Counted from the first letter of the stretch, positions 8,041 to 21,996 are shown. The stretch: 32,160 bases of DNA from Promethearchaeota archaeon (GCA_048939565.1 JBHLPJ010000002.1:1-32160), one strand, 5' to 3'. Numbers and translations: made by a program. Notes: generated by a model not told the origin, from the letters alone.

Positions 8041-8601
8041 ATGCTACTAAACACTGAGCTGTTCAAGGTAATTGTCACTGGAGAGGGTGGTGTTGGAAAA
8101 ACCTGCCTTGTTCAGCGTTATACTAGCGGTAACTTTTATCACACAAGGACGACCATCGGAGTAGGATTTGCCACAGCTGATGTTAATCTCAATGGAAGAG
8201 ACATAAAACTCCAGATTTGGGACTTCGGTGGTGAAGAACGTTTTAGAAGACTTCTTCCCTCTTTCTGCAAAGGAGCAAGTGGAGCATTAGTTCTATTTGA
8301 CTTGACAAGATTTCCTACTTTTCTTCATCTCAACGAATGGTTGGATCTCATAAGAGATAACACCAACAATATACCGCTGGTCCTCGTGGGATCAAAGGCC
8401 GATCTTACGAACATGAGAGTTGTTGGCAGAGAAGAGATCGCCGACCTGATGAATAAATACAATATCGAACACTATTACGAAGTCTCATCGAAAGATGGAA
8501 TCAACACAGAGGTGGTTTTTACTCGAATTGCTAAACTAATAGTTAACTCATTTGAGACCAGCAACACGAATAATGAACACGGGATAATAAGCATACAATA
8601 G
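8041..8601 (+). CDS. Small GTPase, Rab/Ras-like
   Basis: G1 GEGGVGKT, switch-I region TIGVGF (Rab-type IGVDF), G3 WDFGGEERF, G4 GSKAD, G5 SSK. 186 aa with no C-terminal Cys prenylation motif. Confidence 0.9.
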   Translation: MLLNTELFKVIVTGEGGVGKTCLVQRYTSGNFYHTRTTIGVGFATADVNLNGRDIKLQIWDFGGEERFRRLLPSFCKGASGALVLFDLTRFPTFLHLNEWLDLIRDNTNNIPLVLVGSKADLTNMRVVGREEIADLMNKYNIEHYYEVSSKDGINTEVVFTRIAKLIVNSFETSNTNNEHGIISIQ

Positions 8602-8611
8602 GAGGTATAAG

Positions 8612-9598
8612 TTGTTGAGCGTTACTGATCAAAGCTTCTTGGAGACCAAGCAGCCTGTTATATGTGATATCTGCGGTGAGAAGTTTAATATTAAAATTGA
8701 AAAAGAATATCTTAACGATGTCAAGCGTTTTCCGTTCTCTTACACGTTTGTACATGGAGCACCACCACATGCAGTTGTAGTATATCTTGATAAGGATCTG
8801 AATGTTAGAGGAACTGAGACATCTGATCTGACAAGCATAAAAAGCGGTGAACTAAATACTCCCGCTGTAGATATTACGCCTGATACTCGTCCTATTCTTT
8901 CAAAAAGGGACATCGGAAAGTTGGAAATGGACGGCGATACTGTTTTTATACTTCGAGAGATTGACGGTGAGCTTACAGTTAAGGAAATCGCTGAGAAAAC
9001 CAAAATGGACATAGACAAGGTATGCCAGAAAGTCCAGTATTTAGTTGACTCTGGCGTGCTAATGCCGCTGTTACCTATTGACCTCTGTAATGTGGATTAC
9101 CATCGGATTTACGAGCTCATACCGCCATATAATACAAACAATGTAACCATGACTGCAGGTGCCCAGAGAAGTTCTGCAACCTGCACAATTCTCAGCAACC
9201 TTGACAAGGACTACACTGTTCTGGAAATCGCTCGAGGCCTTGAAAAGGCTGGCTTTGATAAATCTCCCAAAGACGTCCTTGAGACTTTGGAATACTTCGA
9301 GGCTAGGGATGTGGTTCGAGTAAAAGGCCTGACTAAGATTGATATACCTGAGGAATGGAACGATCCTATATTCAATCAAGTACCAAGATTTGCAGACGGT
9401 ATAGAAGAAGAAAGCATACTCAAGAAGGTACCAATTCCAGACAAAACACACTATTTCATTATCAAGAATATTGGAAGAAGGAGTATACTCGATACCACAT
9501 TAGGCTTAATAGGACTTGGCATAGAGACAAATCCTAGAAGGGTACTAGAAATCATAAGGAAGTATCAAAAGCAAGGCTTGGTATATGCCACATTCTAG
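8612..9598 (+). CDS. Hypothetical protein: N-terminal C-x2-C-x26-H-x4-H domain followed by three winged-helix-like repeats
   Basis: TTG start 11 nt after the GTPase stop, preceded by GGAGGT. N-terminal segment CDICGEKF...YTFVHGAPPHAVVVYLDKDLNVRG. Three helix-rich segments of about 55 aa each end in a beta-hairpin-like motif: ...LVDSGVLMPL, ...EARDVVRVKG and ...QKQGLVYATF. No family recognised. Confidence 0.7.
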   Translation: MLSVTDQSFLETKQPVICDICGEKFNIKIEKEYLNDVKRFPFSYTFVHGAPPHAVVVYLDKDLNVRGTETSDLTSIKSGELNTPAVDITPDTRPILSKRDIGKLEMDGDTVFILREIDGELTVKEIAEKTKMDIDKVCQKVQYLVDSGVLMPLLPIDLCNVDYHRIYELIPPYNTNNVTMTAGAQRSSATCTILSNLDKDYTVLEIARGLEKAGFDKSPKDVLETLEYFEARDVVRVKGLTKIDIPEEWNDPIFNQVPRFADGIEEESILKKVPIPDKTHYFIIKNIGRRSILDTTLGLIGLGIETNPRRVLEIIRKYQKQGLVYATF

Positions 9599-15839: not shown

Positions 15840-15968
15840 ACTATTTCCTAGAATTGAAAAATAATGATTATGATTTATAAATTAACCGATTGAAAAATTA
15901 AGAAAAGATAAAGCCCCCTTAGATACCGATTTCTAGACCTTCATCTCAAGTAACGGATTGATTTCCCA

Positions 15969-16814
15969 TTATTCTAAGATTATCCTCTCCAAGAGTTCCA
16001 AAAGACTATTTCGTTGAGCTTTCTCTATTGCTACCAAGCCGTAGGTCTTGATACCGAGTACCTCTTCAATTTCTTCAGGAGGGAGCGCGTTCCCGCGATC
16101 CTGTTTGTTCGCAACTCCTATGATTTTTGCATATGGAGCCTTGCTCTTAACCAGCGGGAGGATTTTTTCTTTTGTCAACTTAATATTATCCAGTGTAGAG
16201 TCACAGACTATGGCAATGACTTCTGTTCCTTTAACAAGTATGTCCCAGGCAGCCATGAACTGCTCCTGACCTGCAAAGTCAAATATCATGACATAGTAGA
16301 CTCCTACAGTAACTGTAAGCGGTTCTCTATCGGCGAAGATTGTGGGAACATATTTCATTGGAATTTCTTCTTTTCTCAAGAGGCGAAGTATGGTCGTCTT
16401 CCCGACGCCGCCAAATCCAACCAAAGATAGCTTCACCGGAAGCTTGCTTATGATATCAATCACTTCGTTGTTAAATCCATCGCTTAGCTGGGAGCCGTTC
16501 TCAATCTGATTCTCGACCCCAAACTTCTTAATAAATGAGGTTGTTATTTGCAGCAAAATATCCTGAACTTCTCGTTCTGAATTTGTTCTATCGCTTAGTA
16601 CAGCGAATATGTTGTCGTTTGACTTGAGATAGGAGAAACGAAAACGAACAATGTTTGTGTGTTCGATATTGCCCATTTCCATTCTCTCGGAGGCACCCAA
16701 AATTGTAGGCAGTATTGCGTCCACTGAGATCTCTTTCGATCTTGTGAATGATTTGTGGAAAACCTTACCTCCGACTTTATCTAGTATTAGTACCTCTCGT
16801 ATCAATTGCATCAC
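15969..16814 (-). CDS. Two-domain protein: N-terminal longin/roadblock-like alpha-beta domain fused to an Arf/SR-beta-like small GTPase domain
   Basis: The C-terminal half carries G1 GFGGVGKTT, switch-I T (VPTIF), G3 DFAGQEQF and G4 NKQD (Arf/Sar/SR-beta-type). The N-terminal ~125 aa reads as beta-beta-alpha-beta-beta-alpha (IREVLILDKVGGKVFHKSF ... FRFSYLKSNDNIFAVLSD ... VQDILLQITTSFIKKFG), resembling sigma-adaptin/longin domains. Confidence 0.8.
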   Translation of the reverse strand: MMQLIREVLILDKVGGKVFHKSFTRSKEISVDAILPTILGASERMEMGNIEHTNIVRFRFSYLKSNDNIFAVLSDRTNSEREVQDILLQITTSFIKKFGVENQIENGSQLSDGFNNEVIDIISKLPVKLSLVGFGGVGKTTILRLLRKEEIPMKYVPTIFADREPLTVTVGVYYVMIFDFAGQEQFMAAWDILVKGTEVIAIVCDSTLDNIKLTKEKILPLVKSKAPYAKIIGVANKQDRGNALPPEEIEEVLGIKTYGLVAIEKAQRNSLLELLERIILE

Positions 16815-17083
16815 CGAAGATTTTGATCAATTAAAAATACCTAACCCAACCATTTAATACTTTCGCAACATGGGCACATCTTCTTGTGATAGTCGCAACA
16901 TAATGCAATTAGGATCAGAAGGAATTAAGAGAAGAATCTGTCGTTGGCGTCACTATGAAAATTTTATTATATCCAAATTCTCTTATGTTATATATAAGAT
17001 ACGAAAGAATATACACCCTCTGACTGACCAAAAAAAGGCAGAAAAAGCAATAATAAAAGGGAGTATGTTATGGGGATGATTAG

Positions 17084-18922
17084 TTGCCCAAAACTGCAAA
17101 ATATATGTTTAAGATAATCACTGTCGGAGATGGAATGGTTGGCAAGACCAGTCTTATCCTACGATTCACTGAAAATACCTTTAGGGAGACCTATAAAAAG
17201 ACCATAGGGGCCGATTTCGCTATTAAGAATGTTGATATTGACGGGATTATAGCTAAACTCCAAATTTGGGATTTAGGCGGTCAGGATACCTTTAAGGATC
17301 TACGCAAGATATTCTATCCTGGAGCACGCGGAGCCGTATACGTTTTCGATGTTACTAACCGACCAACCTTCGAAAATATCAGACACTGGTTTAAGGATAT
17401 AGATTCAGTAGTCGGCGATGTTCCCGGACTATTGGTTGGCAATAAGATAGATCTAGCCAGAGAAGTAAGCTATGAGGAAGGGAAAGAATTAGCAGATGAG
17501 CTAGGTATGGACTATCTCGAGACGAGTGCTAAAACTGGAGAAAAGGTAGTAGATGTTTTTAAGATCATGGCGCGAGTAACAGTCGGCGAGAAAGCCGAAG
17601 AAATTCCTACTGGGGTTCCTTCGGCAATATCTCCAAAAATCCCCGGAATCTCTACAGATACTTCAATTGCCTTGGGTCCGGAAGCTGAACTGGAATCCGA
17701 GATCCCTGCAACACCTGCTGACCTGCTTCCAGCTAAACCAGCAATACTTCCTGACGTTGTTATGGATGTTTATGAGTGGATCGAATCACACAGAGACGAT
17801 TTCGTAGATTTATTGAAACGTCTAATAGGTGCTGATACAACCAATCCTCCTGGACACGAGTTCAGAGCAGCCAGAATAATACTGGAAGAATTACTAAAGG
17901 ATAATATCAGATTCAGGGTTTATGAAAGCGAAAAGGATAGAACAAATGTTGTCAGCTGGTCCGGCAAAACTGAGAGTCCTTCTGTTATGCTGGTCTGCCA
18001 TCACGATGTTGCACCGCAAGTTGAGGGGTGGAAGCATCCGCCGCTTGATGCTCTTGAGAAAGATAGCAGGATATATGGGTTAGGAGCTTGCTGCAGCAAA
18101 GGTCCCCTTGTTTCTGCTCTAATGGCCCTTAGAGCGATTCATGTCCTTAATGTAGAACTTAAAGGACAAGCAATGGTCGTGGCGGCCTCCGATGGACTTG
18201 GAGATGGATCAATTGGATTAAAGCACCTCATAGAAGAGGTAGGACTCGTTCCAAATCATGCCATTGTAGCCAGCCCTACAAACTGCAAAACAATAAGAAC
18301 CGTAGAACTAGAGACATTAGCTTTCAGACTTACCAGCAGAGGAAGAGTGTTTGAACCCTCACTTAAGGACATCAATGCTGCCGAGAAACTCGTCAAGGTG
18401 TTAGCAGGATTCAATGATTCTAATGGAAGCAAATATCCGACGCTCGCCAAATGCTCGATTAACATAAGGGAGATCAGAGGAATGCCTGGTGTTGGCGGCA
18501 TTCCTGAGTGGGCAGAGGCAACTCTAGATATTCGTCATCTATTCAAGGAGAACAACGAAAAGATACTTGACGAGGTTCGAAAATTGATTGATAATACCAA
18601 GATATTGGATTCCGATGTTGACGTGTCCATCGAGCAATTACCCGAACCTCCAAAAATCGCCTCTTCAGTCGATGCTCCTGTCGTAATGGCGGTTCGAGAT
18701 GGTTTATATAATACTGCCAATCAAGAACCCTCTTTCGCCGAAACCAAAGAGAATGTCTTGGCGAAAATCTTGGTTCAAAGTAAAATACCTGTGTGCATAT
18801 TTGGCCCAGGTAATGAAGAGAAGTGCAACAGTCCGAACGAGTATATCGAGATTGATGATATGATCGAGGGTGCTAAGGTTTTTGCTGCATCGATAATTAC
18901 TTTGCTAGGGATTAAAGACTGA
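17084..18922 (+). CDS. Rab-like small GTPase fused through a Pro/Ala-rich linker to an M20 (ArgE/DapE/CPG2-type) metallopeptidase-like domain with degenerate active site
   Basis: GTPase domain (aa 1-168): GDGMVGKTS, TIGADFAIK, WDLGGQD, GNKIDL, ETSAK. Linker: aa ~169-225. M20 domain (aa ~226-612): N-terminal LLKRLIG..T.NPPG, VCHHDVAP, W.HPP, IYGLGACCSKG, FGPGNEEKCNSPNEYIEIDD. TTG start at 17084, with ATG 17105 as an alternative. Confidence 0.85.
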   Translation: MPKTAKYMFKIITVGDGMVGKTSLILRFTENTFRETYKKTIGADFAIKNVDIDGIIAKLQIWDLGGQDTFKDLRKIFYPGARGAVYVFDVTNRPTFENIRHWFKDIDSVVGDVPGLLVGNKIDLAREVSYEEGKELADELGMDYLETSAKTGEKVVDVFKIMARVTVGEKAEEIPTGVPSAISPKIPGISTDTSIALGPEAELESEIPATPADLLPAKPAILPDVVMDVYEWIESHRDDFVDLLKRLIGADTTNPPGHEFRAARIILEELLKDNIRFRVYESEKDRTNVVSWSGKTESPSVMLVCHHDVAPQVEGWKHPPLDALEKDSRIYGLGACCSKGPLVSALMALRAIHVLNVELKGQAMVVAASDGLGDGSIGLKHLIEEVGLVPNHAIVASPTNCKTIRTVELETLAFRLTSRGRVFEPSLKDINAAEKLVKVLAGFNDSNGSKYPTLAKCSINIREIRGMPGVGGIPEWAEATLDIRHLFKENNEKILDEVRKLIDNTKILDSDVDVSIEQLPEPPKIASSVDAPVVMAVRDGLYNTANQEPSFAETKENVLAKILVQSKIPVCIFGPGNEEKCNSPNEYIEIDDMIEGAKVFAASIITLLGIKD

Positions 18923-18987
18923 TGGATAATCTTAAAACCCAAAAGTGTCTACATACTTATTCCCAGTAATTCCCCGGGGGGAGTAAT

Positions 18988-20505
18988 TTGAATGTTATTA
19001 CTGTTGAAGACATGAAGATTGCCGACAGGAATTCCGACTATTTGGGTGTTCCACCTCACATCTTGATGGAAAACGCAGGACGAGGAGTTGCAGATGCCAT
19101 TAACAATACCCATAAGGTTGAAGGCAAGAGAATCGTTATATTCTGCGGCCTGGGAAACAACGGCGGAGACGGATTTGTGGCGGCTAGGCATCTGGCTGGG
19201 TTGGGAGCTACAGTATGCCTTATCCTAATGGGCCATCCTGATCGGATTCGCACCCCTGAAGCCCAAAGGAACTGGAGAATCCTAGATAAGATGCAGCTGA
19301 CCGTTGATAAGGTAATTTGCACAGATTCTTCCGAGGAATCCAAGATTAAGGATCTAGTATCTGATGCGGACATAGTTGTAGATGCCATTCTTGGAACAGG
19401 ATTCTCTGGGAAGCTTAGAGACCCCATCACTGTGGCTGTTGACATAATTAATACTTTCATTGGGTTGAAGGTTGCAGTTGATGCGCCAACAGGAGTAGAT
19501 GCATCTACCGGAAAGATATCTGATCGAGCAGTTGAAGCAGACCTGACAGTAACATTCCACAAAGCTAAACCCGGACTGCTGAAAGCGCAGAAACATGTGG
19601 GTAGACTTACAGTTGCCGGAATCGGCATTCCGCCAGAAGCAGAGATTATCGCAGGACCTGGAGATGTAGGAATGACCCAGAAAAGCCGTAGCCCGCATGC
19701 CAAAAAAGGGGAATTTGGAAAAATCTTGGTTATAGGGGGAGGCAGTTATTATCATGGGGCTCCTACATTTGTGGCCTTCGCGGCCCTTAGAACCGGAGCA
19801 GATCTAGCAATCATTGCTACTCCGAGCAGTGTCGCGGACGCAGTGAGAAGTTTTTCTCCAAACCTAATTGTCCGTAGCCTACCCGGGGATGTTCTTACGG
19901 AGGATGCACTCCCTTCATTGAAGGGACTAATTGATTGGGCATCCTGTGTTGCCATAGGACCTGGCTTGGGTGTTGAGGCAGAAACAGTAGATGCTGTACT
20001 TAAAATTCTTGATCTTATCAAAGAGTCCAACAAGCCAACCCTAGTTGACGCTGATGCAATAAAGGCAATGGCAAAAGAGAAGACCATCTTGAGCGGACTT
20101 CCTGCTGTATTGACACCCCACGCTGGCGAATATACAAAGCTTACTGGCGAAATCCTGCCCCCCTCTGAGGAGCTTCAGAAAAGAATTGGCATAATAATGA
20201 GAACAGCAGGAGAACTTGGTGTAGTTCTGCTTCTTAAGGGGCATGAAGATATTGTTTCTGATGGAAAACGCTACAAGATTAACACTACTGGCAATCCTGG
20301 CATGACTGTGGGAGGTACTGGCGATGTCCTCAGTGGCGTTGCTGCAACATTTCTTTCACAAGGCTCCGATCCATTTAGAGCAGCAGTCTCAGCTGCCTTC
20401 ATAAATGGTCGCGCAGGTGATTTAGCTGTGGACAGACTAGGATATCATATTGTTGCCACGGATGTCATAGAGATGATTCCAAAAGCTATGAAAGAATGCC
20501 TGTGA
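18988..20505 (+). CDS. nnr: Bifunctional NAD(P)H-hydrate repair enzyme (NAD(P)HX epimerase / ADP-dependent dehydratase, YjeF N+C)
   Basis: YjeF_N domain: FCGLGNNGGDGFVAARHL, DAILGTGFSG. Carbohydrate-kinase domain: KG.FGK.LVIGG, GPGLG, TPH.GE, GGTGDVLSG. TTG start preceded by GGGGGGAG. Confidence 0.9.
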   Translation: MNVITVEDMKIADRNSDYLGVPPHILMENAGRGVADAINNTHKVEGKRIVIFCGLGNNGGDGFVAARHLAGLGATVCLILMGHPDRIRTPEAQRNWRILDKMQLTVDKVICTDSSEESKIKDLVSDADIVVDAILGTGFSGKLRDPITVAVDIINTFIGLKVAVDAPTGVDASTGKISDRAVEADLTVTFHKAKPGLLKAQKHVGRLTVAGIGIPPEAEIIAGPGDVGMTQKSRSPHAKKGEFGKILVIGGGSYYHGAPTFVAFAALRTGADLAIIATPSSVADAVRSFSPNLIVRSLPGDVLTEDALPSLKGLIDWASCVAIGPGLGVEAETVDAVLKILDLIKESNKPTLVDADAIKAMAKEKTILSGLPAVLTPHAGEYTKLTGEILPPSEELQKRIGIIMRTAGELGVVLLLKGHEDIVSDGKRYKINTTGNPGMTVGGTGDVLSGVAATFLSQGSDPFRAAVSAAFINGRAGDLAVDRLGYHIVATDVIEMIPKAMKECL

Positions 20506-20642
20506 GCTATTCTTATGTTAGTAGGTGCTCACACTCCGAAAACCTTTACTTCAGGGTTGTTGCGGTTTATTAATGGTTGAAGGAAAAGTTAAATTATAGG
20601 AAAATAATAATAAAGACTGAGGCCAAAACCTAGGAAAGTGAT

Positions 20643-21548
20643 GTGTTAGTAATGATAATCTACGGCGTATCGGATTCTGGTGATCTAGACGAACTAAAGG
20701 GAGATAGACCAATTAAGGATTATTTAGTCAGCGACAGAGTTCTTATTTTAATAGATGATGATTTGAAGAAAATTTGGATATGGAAAGGTAATAGTGCCCC
20801 TGTTCGACAGAAATTTATTAGTGCGCGAGTGGCAAATCAAATAAGACAGGAAAGAGGATTAACCTATAAGACTTTGAGCATTGATGAAGGTGAAGAATCA
20901 CAAGAGTTTCTCGATTCAATTGGAGCCAAACCAAAGAAAGCTCCCCGTCCTGCGCTTCCAGCTGAGCCCAAACCTCCTATGCCCGTTGCAGCTCCCACTC
21001 CTGATCCAACTCCCAAGTCTGCTCCAGCACCGGCTGCTCCAGCTCCCGCGCCAATAGTCAAACAGCCTGAAGCACCAAAAACACCTGCAACCTCAAGAGT
21101 CACTTCGCCCATGCCCTCTCCCACTCCAGCAGTAGTTACGCCTCTTGAAGCAGAAGTAATATCGAAACTTGAAAGAGTCGAAATCCCTCGCGGATATGAA
21201 AGAGAGTTGGTCATCGTTGGCAACGAGGTATATGCAATCACAGAATATCGAACGATTTTCTTGGGGGAGAAAAAGGTTGAAACAAAATTAGAAAAAGCCT
21301 CTAAGCTACCAGAGGGAATATTCTTTGCAGAAGGTTACACACCTAGAGTAATAGTGGACAAAGGTCGCGTTCTGGCTGTGGAATTCTTGAAAACAGGTAA
21401 GGGAGTTGAAGTCCCTGTCAAGGATACTACTCCTCGTTCACTGCGAGATGAAATGAAATTGCATTTGAGCGATCTAGTCGATTTCTTTAAAATCGATATC
21501 CCCAAGAAAGAGAAGAAGCTAAAAAGGGAAAAAAAGGGAAAGAAATAG
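20643..21548 (+). CDS. Gelsolin/cofilin-fold domain protein with Pro-rich linker, unknown C-terminal domain and Lys-rich tail (1DGelX-like architecture)
   Basis: In aa ~5-95, SDRVLILIDDDLKKIWIWKGNSAPVRQKFISARVANQIRQERGL.YKTLSIDEGEESQEFLDSIG fits the gelsolin-repeat pattern (yil...iyvW.G..as..ek..a...a..i......v.eG.E...F...f). A PxP/AP-rich segment follows (aa ~95-168), then a beta-rich ~120-aa domain and the tail KKEKKLKREKKGKK. Confidence 0.7.
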   Translation: MLVMIIYGVSDSGDLDELKGDRPIKDYLVSDRVLILIDDDLKKIWIWKGNSAPVRQKFISARVANQIRQERGLTYKTLSIDEGEESQEFLDSIGAKPKKAPRPALPAEPKPPMPVAAPTPDPTPKSAPAPAAPAPAPIVKQPEAPKTPATSRVTSPMPSPTPAVVTPLEAEVISKLERVEIPRGYERELVIVGNEVYAITEYRTIFLGEKKVETKLEKASKLPEGIFFAEGYTPRVIVDKGRVLAVEFLKTGKGVEVPVKDTTPRSLRDEMKLHLSDLVDFFKIDIPKKEKKLKREKKGKK

Positions 21549-21603
21549 CAGTGCATTAAGACAGATTGTGATCAACGCATCATTTGGTTAGGGAGATCTG
21601 AAG

Positions 21604-21996
21604 GTGTCATCTGTAAAAATCACTCCTGAAAAAGCAAAAGAATTGGCCAATTATCTTAGTGAGATTACCATGAAAACCGAATTAGAGGCTCTGGCCTGTG
21701 TTACGCGTGAGGGACAACGACTTGCTTTCAAAACTGTTGGCTATGAAGTTGAACCGGATCTAATGTCAGCAATTTCAGCTGCCATGCTTCATGTAGGAGA
21801 GACTGCCGTATCAAGAATGGGCTTTGGAGATCTTTGGGAGGTTATTGTCACAGGAGCGGAGGGCTATATAGTGTTATCTGGAGCGGGAAAGCTGGTCTTG
21901 ATAGGTGCTGGGAGATCTATGACTAGTCTCGGCAATACTGTGAGTGTATTTAGAAATTATGCAAAAATGGTTGCCAATCTGTTTCCTAGCAAGTAA
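21604..21996 (+). CDS. Roadblock/LC7 (MglB-like) domain protein
   Basis: 130 aa. LEALACVTREGQRLAF...DLMSAISAAML..GE....MGFGDLWEVIVTGAEGYIVLSGAGKLVLIGAGRSMTSLGNT follows the Roadblock/LC7 profile. GTG start preceded by AGGGAG. Confidence 0.75.
   Translation: MSSVKITPEKAKELANYLSEITMKTELEALACVTREGQRLAFKTVGYEVEPDLMSAISAAMLHVGETAVSRMGFGDLWEVIVTGAEGYIVLSGAGKLVLIGAGRSMTSLGNTVSVFRNYAKMVANLFPSK

Follow-up and report, generated by a model that had tools for sequence, protein, structure and literature searches.

We analysed a 32,160-nucleotide stretch of DNA from a Promethearchaeota archaeon (GCA_048939565.1, JBHLPJ010000002.1:1-32160; hereafter the window), in which two genes for multidomain small GTPases stand head to head. 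One, termed LonArf, encodes a longin domain joined to an Arf-like GTPase; the other, termed Rab-M20, encodes a Rab-like GTPase fused to an M20-derived pseudo-peptidase. We consider that the two genes are probably independent transcription units juxtaposed in a single lineage, with LonArf self-contained and Rab-M20 partnered, in terms of position, by the genes downstream of it. This reading is favoured because the pairing is phylogenetically narrow, because the intervening spacer carries two promoter-like footprints, and because the conserved context of Rab-M20 lies on its downstream side.

The divergent pair and its conservation

LonArf occupies positions 15969-16814 on the minus strand (maximal open reading frame [ORF], 281 aa; best Pfam model Arf, 1.9e-15), and Rab-M20 occupies positions 17084-18922 on the plus strand (612 aa, TTG start). 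They diverge from a 269-bp spacer (16815-17083) with a GC content of 33.1%, compared with 42.6% for the window. A preliminary description, made from the sequence alone, had reported a divergent pair on a 269-bp A/T-rich region, and the ORFs, the spacer and its GC content of 33% all agree with it. A 69-aa ORF within the spacer (16870-17079) was discarded, as its ATG is unconserved and the indels in relatives are not multiples of three, and an Rfam search of the window and of the spacer returned no match.

The nearest public relative of the window is Candidatus Hodarchaeota isolate DZ1B.307, a metagenome-assembled genome with ~91% protein identity. The pairing of LonArf with Rab-M20 is limited to the window, DZ1B.307 (91%), and H2M.186 together with short-read contigs (82-85%). 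Throughout these sequences, a block of ~15 kb is collinear, comprising nadC-nadA-aspDH-LonArf, the divergent series Rab-M20-nnr-gelsolin-roadblock, and PGM. Since the entire neighbourhood is collinear in these close relatives, the adjacency of LonArf and Rab-M20 carries no specific signal. A database of 5.8 billion proteins contained no relative of intermediate identity for either family.

The preliminary description had proposed that the two genes encode interacting, co-regulated partners, and the gene-neighbourhood check argues against this: the pairing was found only at identities of at least 82%, and none of the more distant genomes that carry either family, in Odinarchaeia, Jord-/Freyrarchaeia and Ranarchaeia, showed it. 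In Odinarchaeia, a homoserine dehydrogenase gene precedes the Rab-M20-like gene, and the nearest longin-Arf-like gene lies ~35 kb away on the same 1.05-Mb contig. In the annotated Jord-/Freyrarchaeia loci, it is a Pyr_redox_2 gene that diverges from Rab-M20, and no LonArf homologue was detected in any Jord-/Freyrarchaeia locus. Upstream of the LonArf orthologues lies either a divergent gene for an EF-Tu-like GTPase (Odinarchaeia loci) or a same-strand TFIIE/TrmB-like gene (Ranarchaeia). On their downstream side, the Odinarchaeota and Ranarchaeia orthologues overlap by 4 nt with a gene for a coiled-coil, proline-rich protein (L007 8822-9463; L008 4528-5190; L010 8831-9331), which has no homologue in the window. 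The head-to-head pair is therefore probably an ordinary juxtaposition. The coiled-coil, proline-rich protein itself bears a conserved C-terminal motif of the DLEFNYEGGF..(E/D)Y type.

Two promoter-like blocks in the divergent spacer

The footprint alignment comprised four spacers that are otherwise 60-80% identical, and two blocks stand out in it (column-shuffle p ~6e-4). The block facing LonArf (16851-16868, minus strand) is invariant in 17 of its 18 columns and was missing from the elements listed in the preliminary description. Read on the minus strand, it consists of TTGCGAAAG-T-ATTAAATG, that is, a purine stretch resembling a B recognition element (BRE) followed by a TATA-like box, with a predicted LonArf transcription start near 16828. 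The block facing Rab-M20 (16954-16972, plus strand) has the BRE/TATA-like form TATGAAAA-TTTTATTATAT, and its portion 16960-16972 is invariant in all four sequences (13/13 columns); transcription of Rab-M20 is predicted to start near 16993, giving a leader of ~90 nt. The TATA centres of the two blocks are ~111 bp apart, and in each block the BRE-like purine-rich extension lies on the side expected for its gene. We infer that both blocks are putative core promoters. The gelsolin gene and aspDH are likewise preceded by invariant blocks of the similar type GAAA(A/G)(G/T)-T(T/A)AAT, which supports reading these motifs as the core promoters of the lineage.

Where the preliminary description envisaged a single shared control region, the spacer thus contains two distinct conserved blocks resembling core promoters. 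Its three TATA-like elements fared unevenly: all three A/T strings are present, at 16828-16836 (minus), 16962-16972 (plus) and 16988-16998 (plus), but only 16962-16972 is conserved across the four sequences. The unconserved strings at 16828-16836 and 16988-16998 lie close to the predicted starts near 16828 and 16993. Windows of eight A/T letters number 19 in the spacer, against 10 +/- 5.5 in shuffled versions, 8% of which reach 19. Such runs are not clearly above chance for this composition, so that A/T strings alone mean little.

Between the two promoter-like blocks lies a semi-conserved block, TTGTGATAGTCGCAA (16884-16898, assigned to neither strand), in which ~11 of 15 columns are invariant. 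Its core, TCGCAA, was considered as a repeated regulator motif and set aside, as it shows no enrichment in the window. A hairpin predicted in the Rab-M20 leader (z = -2.2) is destroyed by a deletion in one relative (L019) and is not a conserved structure. A scan for sigma-70 promoters and hairpin terminators gave counts at chance level, and its model is inapplicable to archaea.

A further block of ~50 nt, near-invariant, precedes the aspDH-nadA-nadC genes (15841-15890, minus strand) and contains TTTATAAAT at 15881-15873. It is probably the operon's own promoter, in which case LonArf would be a single-gene unit. In DZ1B.307, the interval between LonArf and aspDH holds ~350 extra bases.

The conserved context of Rab-M20 lies downstream

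Rab-M20 is followed on the plus strand by nnr, a gelsolin-domain gene and a roadblock gene. The Rab-M20/nnr spacer (18923-18987) measures 65 nt and has no T-tract (longest T run 2), just as the preliminary description had stated; it contains GGATAATCTTAAAAC at 18924-18938, and GGGGGGAG precedes the TTG start of nnr. The 97-column alignment that includes this spacer (A7) has a mean column identity of 84% over four sequences. The spacer is 64-68 nt long in the Hodarchaeota lineage and 15-16 nt in Odinarchaeia. The co-transcription of nnr with Rab-M20 proposed earlier is partly sustained, in that the adjacency is conserved at short distance in Odinarchaeia, but the conserved BRE/TATA-like string GGATAATCTTAAAAC in the window spacer allows a separate promoter; nnr could be transcribed by read-through from Rab-M20 or from a promoter of its own.

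The nnr gene (18988-20505) encodes a bifunctional NAD(P)HX epimerase/dehydratase (Pfam YjeF_N 8.5e-46, Carb_kinase 4.4e-49). Between it and the gelsolin gene lies a block of 41 nt (20576-20616, plus strand) that is invariant in four genomes, contains GGAAAAGT-TAAATTATA and probably provides the gelsolin and roadblock genes with an internal promoter. The gelsolin-domain gene (20652-21548, 298 aa) is taken to start at ATG 20652 because the GTG at 20643 is unconserved. Its product matches Asgard gelsolins in sequence searches of the PDB (7whg, 4e-9; 7c2h; 7c2f) and consists of one N-terminal gelsolin domain, a proline-rich linker and an unassigned C-terminal domain. This arrangement resembles the 1DGelX architecture (PMC7444086). 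Members of the family are spread across Asgard lineages and annotated only as hypothetical, and to our knowledge the conserved place of the gelsolin gene between nnr and the roadblock gene has not been reported before. The roadblock/LC7 gene (21604-21996, plus strand) encodes 130 aa (Pfam Robl_LC7 4.5e-4; PDB 7f8m 3.7e-6, 9jue 8e-5).

In Odinarchaeia, the Rab-M20-like gene, nnr, the gelsolin-domain gene (~286 aa) and the roadblock gene (131 aa) occur in the same order as in the window (loci L006, L027 and L100/L101), with successive spacers of 16, 51 and 2 nt in L006 and 15, 45 and 3 nt in L100. The trio of nnr, gelsolin and roadblock genes is collinear among the window (18988-21996), Odinarchaeia locus L006 (9691-12596) and a further locus, L103 (5246-8442). 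Between the window and Odinarchaeia, identity reaches 68-70% for the roadblock protein, compared with ~45% for Nnr and PGM. A metagenome scan with the roadblock alignment yielded one distant locus, with an unrelated context. The roadblock gene is linked to Rab-M20 in both the Hodarchaeota lineage and Odinarchaeia, but nnr and the gelsolin gene intervene. Compared with the MglB-MglA, Ragulator-Rag and TRAPP-Rab1 platforms, in which a longin or roadblock fold is likewise combined with a small GTPase, the candidate roadblock partner of Rab-M20 is encoded 2.7 kb downstream of it. An actin gene lies 4.6 kb downstream of the trio in L103.

Rab-M20 combines a Rab-like GTPase with a degenerate M20 domain

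The TTG start of Rab-M20 is kept in all four sequences, and a GGGG upstream of it is also conserved. Residues 1-170 (17084-17593, plus strand) form a Rab-like GTPase domain with intact G motifs (Pfam Ras, 5e-51). Its top PDB relatives are Rab1A and Rab8A (1e-42 to 1e-40), and the Thorarchaeota Rab 7ezb is also among them. The motifs that align with eukaryotic and Asgard Rab GTPases, GDGMVGKTS, IGADF, KLQIWDLGGQ, LVGNKIDL and ETSAK, are of Rab type, with the difference that G3 reads WDLGGQ and not WDTAGQ. Furthermore, Rab-M20 has neither a C-terminal prenylation cysteine motif nor a hypervariable tail; a proline-rich linker joins the GTPase to the M20 domain, which replaces that tail and ends in ...LLGIKD.

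The M20 domain is of the ArgE/DapE type and includes the dimerisation subdomain (17780-18919, plus strand; Pfam Peptidase_M20 6e-18, M20_dimer 2e-8), and its match to DapE 7uoi (1.8e-13) spans residues 13-380 of a 387-residue C-terminal query. It shares fold, dimerisation subdomain and overall length with the M20 metallopeptidases and deacylases ArgE, DapE and LysK, but has lost the active site and is fused to a Rab-like GTPase. Alignment with DapE 7uoi, ArgE 7rsf and its own relatives revealed that only the first His and the neighbouring Asp are kept; the bridging Asp is changed to Cys, the Glu-Glu pair to Gly-Leu, the next Glu to Ser and the last His to Asn. With four of five metal ligands and the catalytic Glu replaced, the M20 domain of the window lineage is, judged by its sequence, a pseudoenzyme, as the preliminary description had supposed. 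The Rab-M20 proteins of Jord-/Freyrarchaeia retain the M20 motifs HxD, DxKG, DEE, E and H, whereas the M20 region of the Odinarchaeia Rab-M20-like protein is eroded further, includes a deletion and is no longer recognised by Pfam.

Several cysteines stand at or beside the former ligand positions in the window lineage (residues ~310-600: vCHHD, aCCsKG, ekCNspNE, pvCifGPG), and these could form a new metal-binding or redox-sensing site.

When relatives of Rab-M20 were scanned for in genomes with a full-length alignment, full-length members were found in the Hodarchaeota lineage, in Jord-/Freyrarchaeia and in Odinarchaeia. When 1.84 billion representative proteins were scanned in full with HMMER, only four clusters aligned end to end, and a literature search for GTPase-M20 fusions in Asgard archaea found no description of Rab-M20. 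The fusion is rare.

Five Promethearchaeota loci (L086, L091, L092, L095, L096) carry a stand-alone M20 gene at a distance of ~8 kb from a gene for a Rab-like GTPase. These M20 genes, situated at ~1-2.4 kb in each locus, have the same relative position, and their products are 23-28% identical to the window M20 domain; the spacing probably reflects orthologous gene order without functional meaning.

LonArf belongs to a known longin-GTPase architecture

Most LonArf homologues begin with MIRE, and GGTGA stands just upstream of TTG 16805, so translation probably starts at this codon (278 aa); the alternative is ATG 16811 (280 aa). The N-terminal 122 residues, counted from the ATG (16446-16811, minus strand), match the Pfam Longin model weakly (E 0.013). 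In Foldseek searches with the full-length model, the GTPase domain dominated, and the longin domain was therefore modelled and searched separately. Its AlphaFold2 model (predicted local distance difference test [pLDDT] 85; predicted template-modelling [pTM] score 0.81) has the topology beta-beta-alpha-beta-beta-beta-alpha-alpha and, unlike roadblock proteins, no N-terminal helix. Almost all of the PDB matches listed are longin-fold structures, the top one being the longin domain of VAMP7 (TM 0.78); others are Sec22b, zeta-COP, sigma- and mu-adaptin, TRAPP Bet5/Trs23, SRX (2fh5) and LAMTOR-type structures. At the level of the model, the longin fold of the N-terminal half is confirmed.

The Arf-like GTPase domain (15972-16439, minus strand) accounts for the Pfam Arf match and resembles Arl1, Arf, Rho and the Asgard GerdArfR1 structure 8oum in Foldseek. 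Its G motifs are intact: G1 is GFGGVGKTT, G3 is DFAGQE with a Trp seven residues past the Gln, and G4 is NKQD. In place of the N-terminal amphipathic helix of the Arf family, the protein carries the 122-residue longin domain, and for this reason we call it Arf-like rather than a canonical Arf. The experimentally studied membrane-binding ArfR/AArf proteins have such a helix; LonArf does not.

Asgard Rag/Arf-like GTPases fused to longin or roadblock domains have been described by Tran et al. 2024 (PMC10933270), and longin N-termini have also been noted in 'AArf' proteins (PMC11914678). LonArf likewise places a longin domain N-terminal to an Arf/Rag-like core with intact G motifs, differs from these fusions in nothing essential, and represents an architecture already known in Asgard archaea. 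Its orthologues in Ranarchaeia and Odinarchaeota are 46-50% identical. The pairing of a longin-like domain with a small GTPase is also common to the SRX domain of SRalpha and the Arf-like GTPase SRbeta; in LonArf, the two are fused in one chain.

Elsewhere in the window (8041-9598), a second small GTPase gene (Ras family, 2e-40) stands 10 nt ahead of a gene whose 328-aa product has weak winged-helix matches. This gene pair is conserved in DZ1B.307.

Independent units or a coupled module

According to the reading we favour, the head-to-head arrangement would be a lineage-specific juxtaposition in an Asgard archaeon (labelled Hodarchaeota) and not a conserved two-GTPase module. The spacer would hold two separate archaeal core promoters (BRE plus TATA), placed back to back. 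The first would drive LonArf as a single-gene unit, whose built-in longin domain would probably serve its own GTPase domain, or that of a partner, as platform or regulator, by analogy with SRX-SRbeta and MglB-MglA. The second would drive Rab-M20 at the head of a string continuing with nnr, the gelsolin-domain protein and the roadblock protein. The most plausible regulatory partner of Rab-M20 would then be the downstream roadblock protein, a presumed platform of the GTPase-activating protein (GAP)/guanine nucleotide exchange factor (GEF) type, and not LonArf. Because the active site is lost and the dimerisation domain retained, the M20 moiety is probably a scaffold for dimerisation or ligand binding and not a hydrolase.

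Several observations weigh against this reading. The promoter footprints are based on four sequences from about three species, the block at 16884-16898, situated between both promoters, could bind a shared regulator, and LonArf and Rab-M20 may be co-regulated within this lineage. On the downstream side, the nnr-gelsolin-roadblock trio of L103, which belongs to another Hodarchaeota genome, occurs without Rab-M20 and with wider spacers, so that Rab-M20 is not obligate in the string and its link to the roadblock gene is only positional. Collinearity between the window lineage and Odinarchaeia extends to opposite-strand genes (PGM, a 48-aa gene and LeuRS), and some of the conservation may consequently be inherited gene order and not function. 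In MK-D1, moreover, small GTPase genes generally lie outside operons with roadblock or longin genes (Tran et al., PMC10933270).

Several of the same observations could be taken further, to the view that all adjacencies, including Rab-M20-nnr-gelsolin-roadblock, are inherited gene order without functional coupling, which we regard as rather doubtful. It would accommodate the collinear housekeeping genes on the opposite strand, the promoter-like blocks before the gelsolin gene and possibly before nnr, and the more widely spaced trio that lacks Rab-M20; the Odinarchaeia same-strand spacers of 2-51 nt look operonic, however, the trio is maintained in three lineages whose housekeeping proteins are only ~45% identical, and the roadblock protein is unusually well conserved. 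A stronger coupling, in which Rab-M20 and the downstream roadblock and gelsolin-domain proteins constitute a conserved Asgard switch module co-expressed with Nnr, appears unlikely to us. Such a module would combine a Rab-type GTPase, a roadblock GAP/GEF platform, and either an actin regulator or a Sec23-like gelsolin GAP element.

That the two GTPases instead form a co-regulated, physically or functionally coupled pair, as a cascade or heteromeric switch of recent origin in this lineage that is governed by the shared spacer, is in our estimation quite unlikely. Each of the lineage's three known genomes retains the arrangement, the two promoter-like blocks enclose a semi-conserved block, and longin domains are known platforms for small GTPases (PMC10933270). 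Yet the pairing is not seen below ~82% identity, the whole neighbourhood is collinear above that level, each gene has a putative core promoter of its own, both families occur unpaired in Odinarchaeia at a distance of ~35 kb, and LonArf orthologues elsewhere keep another downstream partner, the coiled-coil protein that is absent from the window. Very unlikely, in our view, is an NAD-centred neighbourhood in which one or both GTPases sense or regulate NAD metabolism and the dead M20 domain acts as a metabolite-binding sensor. Genes of NAD metabolism do flank the pair on both sides, with aspDH-nadA-nadC serving de novo NAD synthesis and nnr serving NAD(P)HX repair; nnr directly follows the Rab-M20-like gene in Odinarchaeia, and nnr and nadC lie 5-9 kb from Rab-M20 in two Jordarchaeales genomes. 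In the latter, however, unrelated housekeeping genes on both strands lie in between, and the arrangement was not counted as an operon. Furthermore, nnr is absent from the available flanks of five other Jord-/Freyrarchaeia loci (L020-L023, L025) and from the L002-L005 contigs, aspDH-nadA-nadC has its own strongly conserved promoter-like block, and nnr is a common housekeeping gene.

Implications for Asgard small GTPases

Pairing Asgard small GTPases with their regulators is an open problem, since operons that combine them with roadblock or longin genes are rare (PMC10933270). The non-conservation of the head-to-head pair removes a tempting but weak lead. LonArf is a further member of a known architecture, and Rab-M20, with its decaying site and conserved context, is worth modest follow-up. 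The M20 domain is intact in Jord-/Freyrarchaeia but has decayed in both the window lineage and Odinarchaeia, and it illustrates the erosion of an enzyme domain that is fused to a GTPase. Through the nnr-gelsolin-roadblock string, Rab-M20 supplies a short list of candidate partners that can be tested for one Asgard Rab-like switch; were the switch module real, it would represent a prokaryotic forerunner of the coupling of small GTPases to the cytoskeleton or to membranes.

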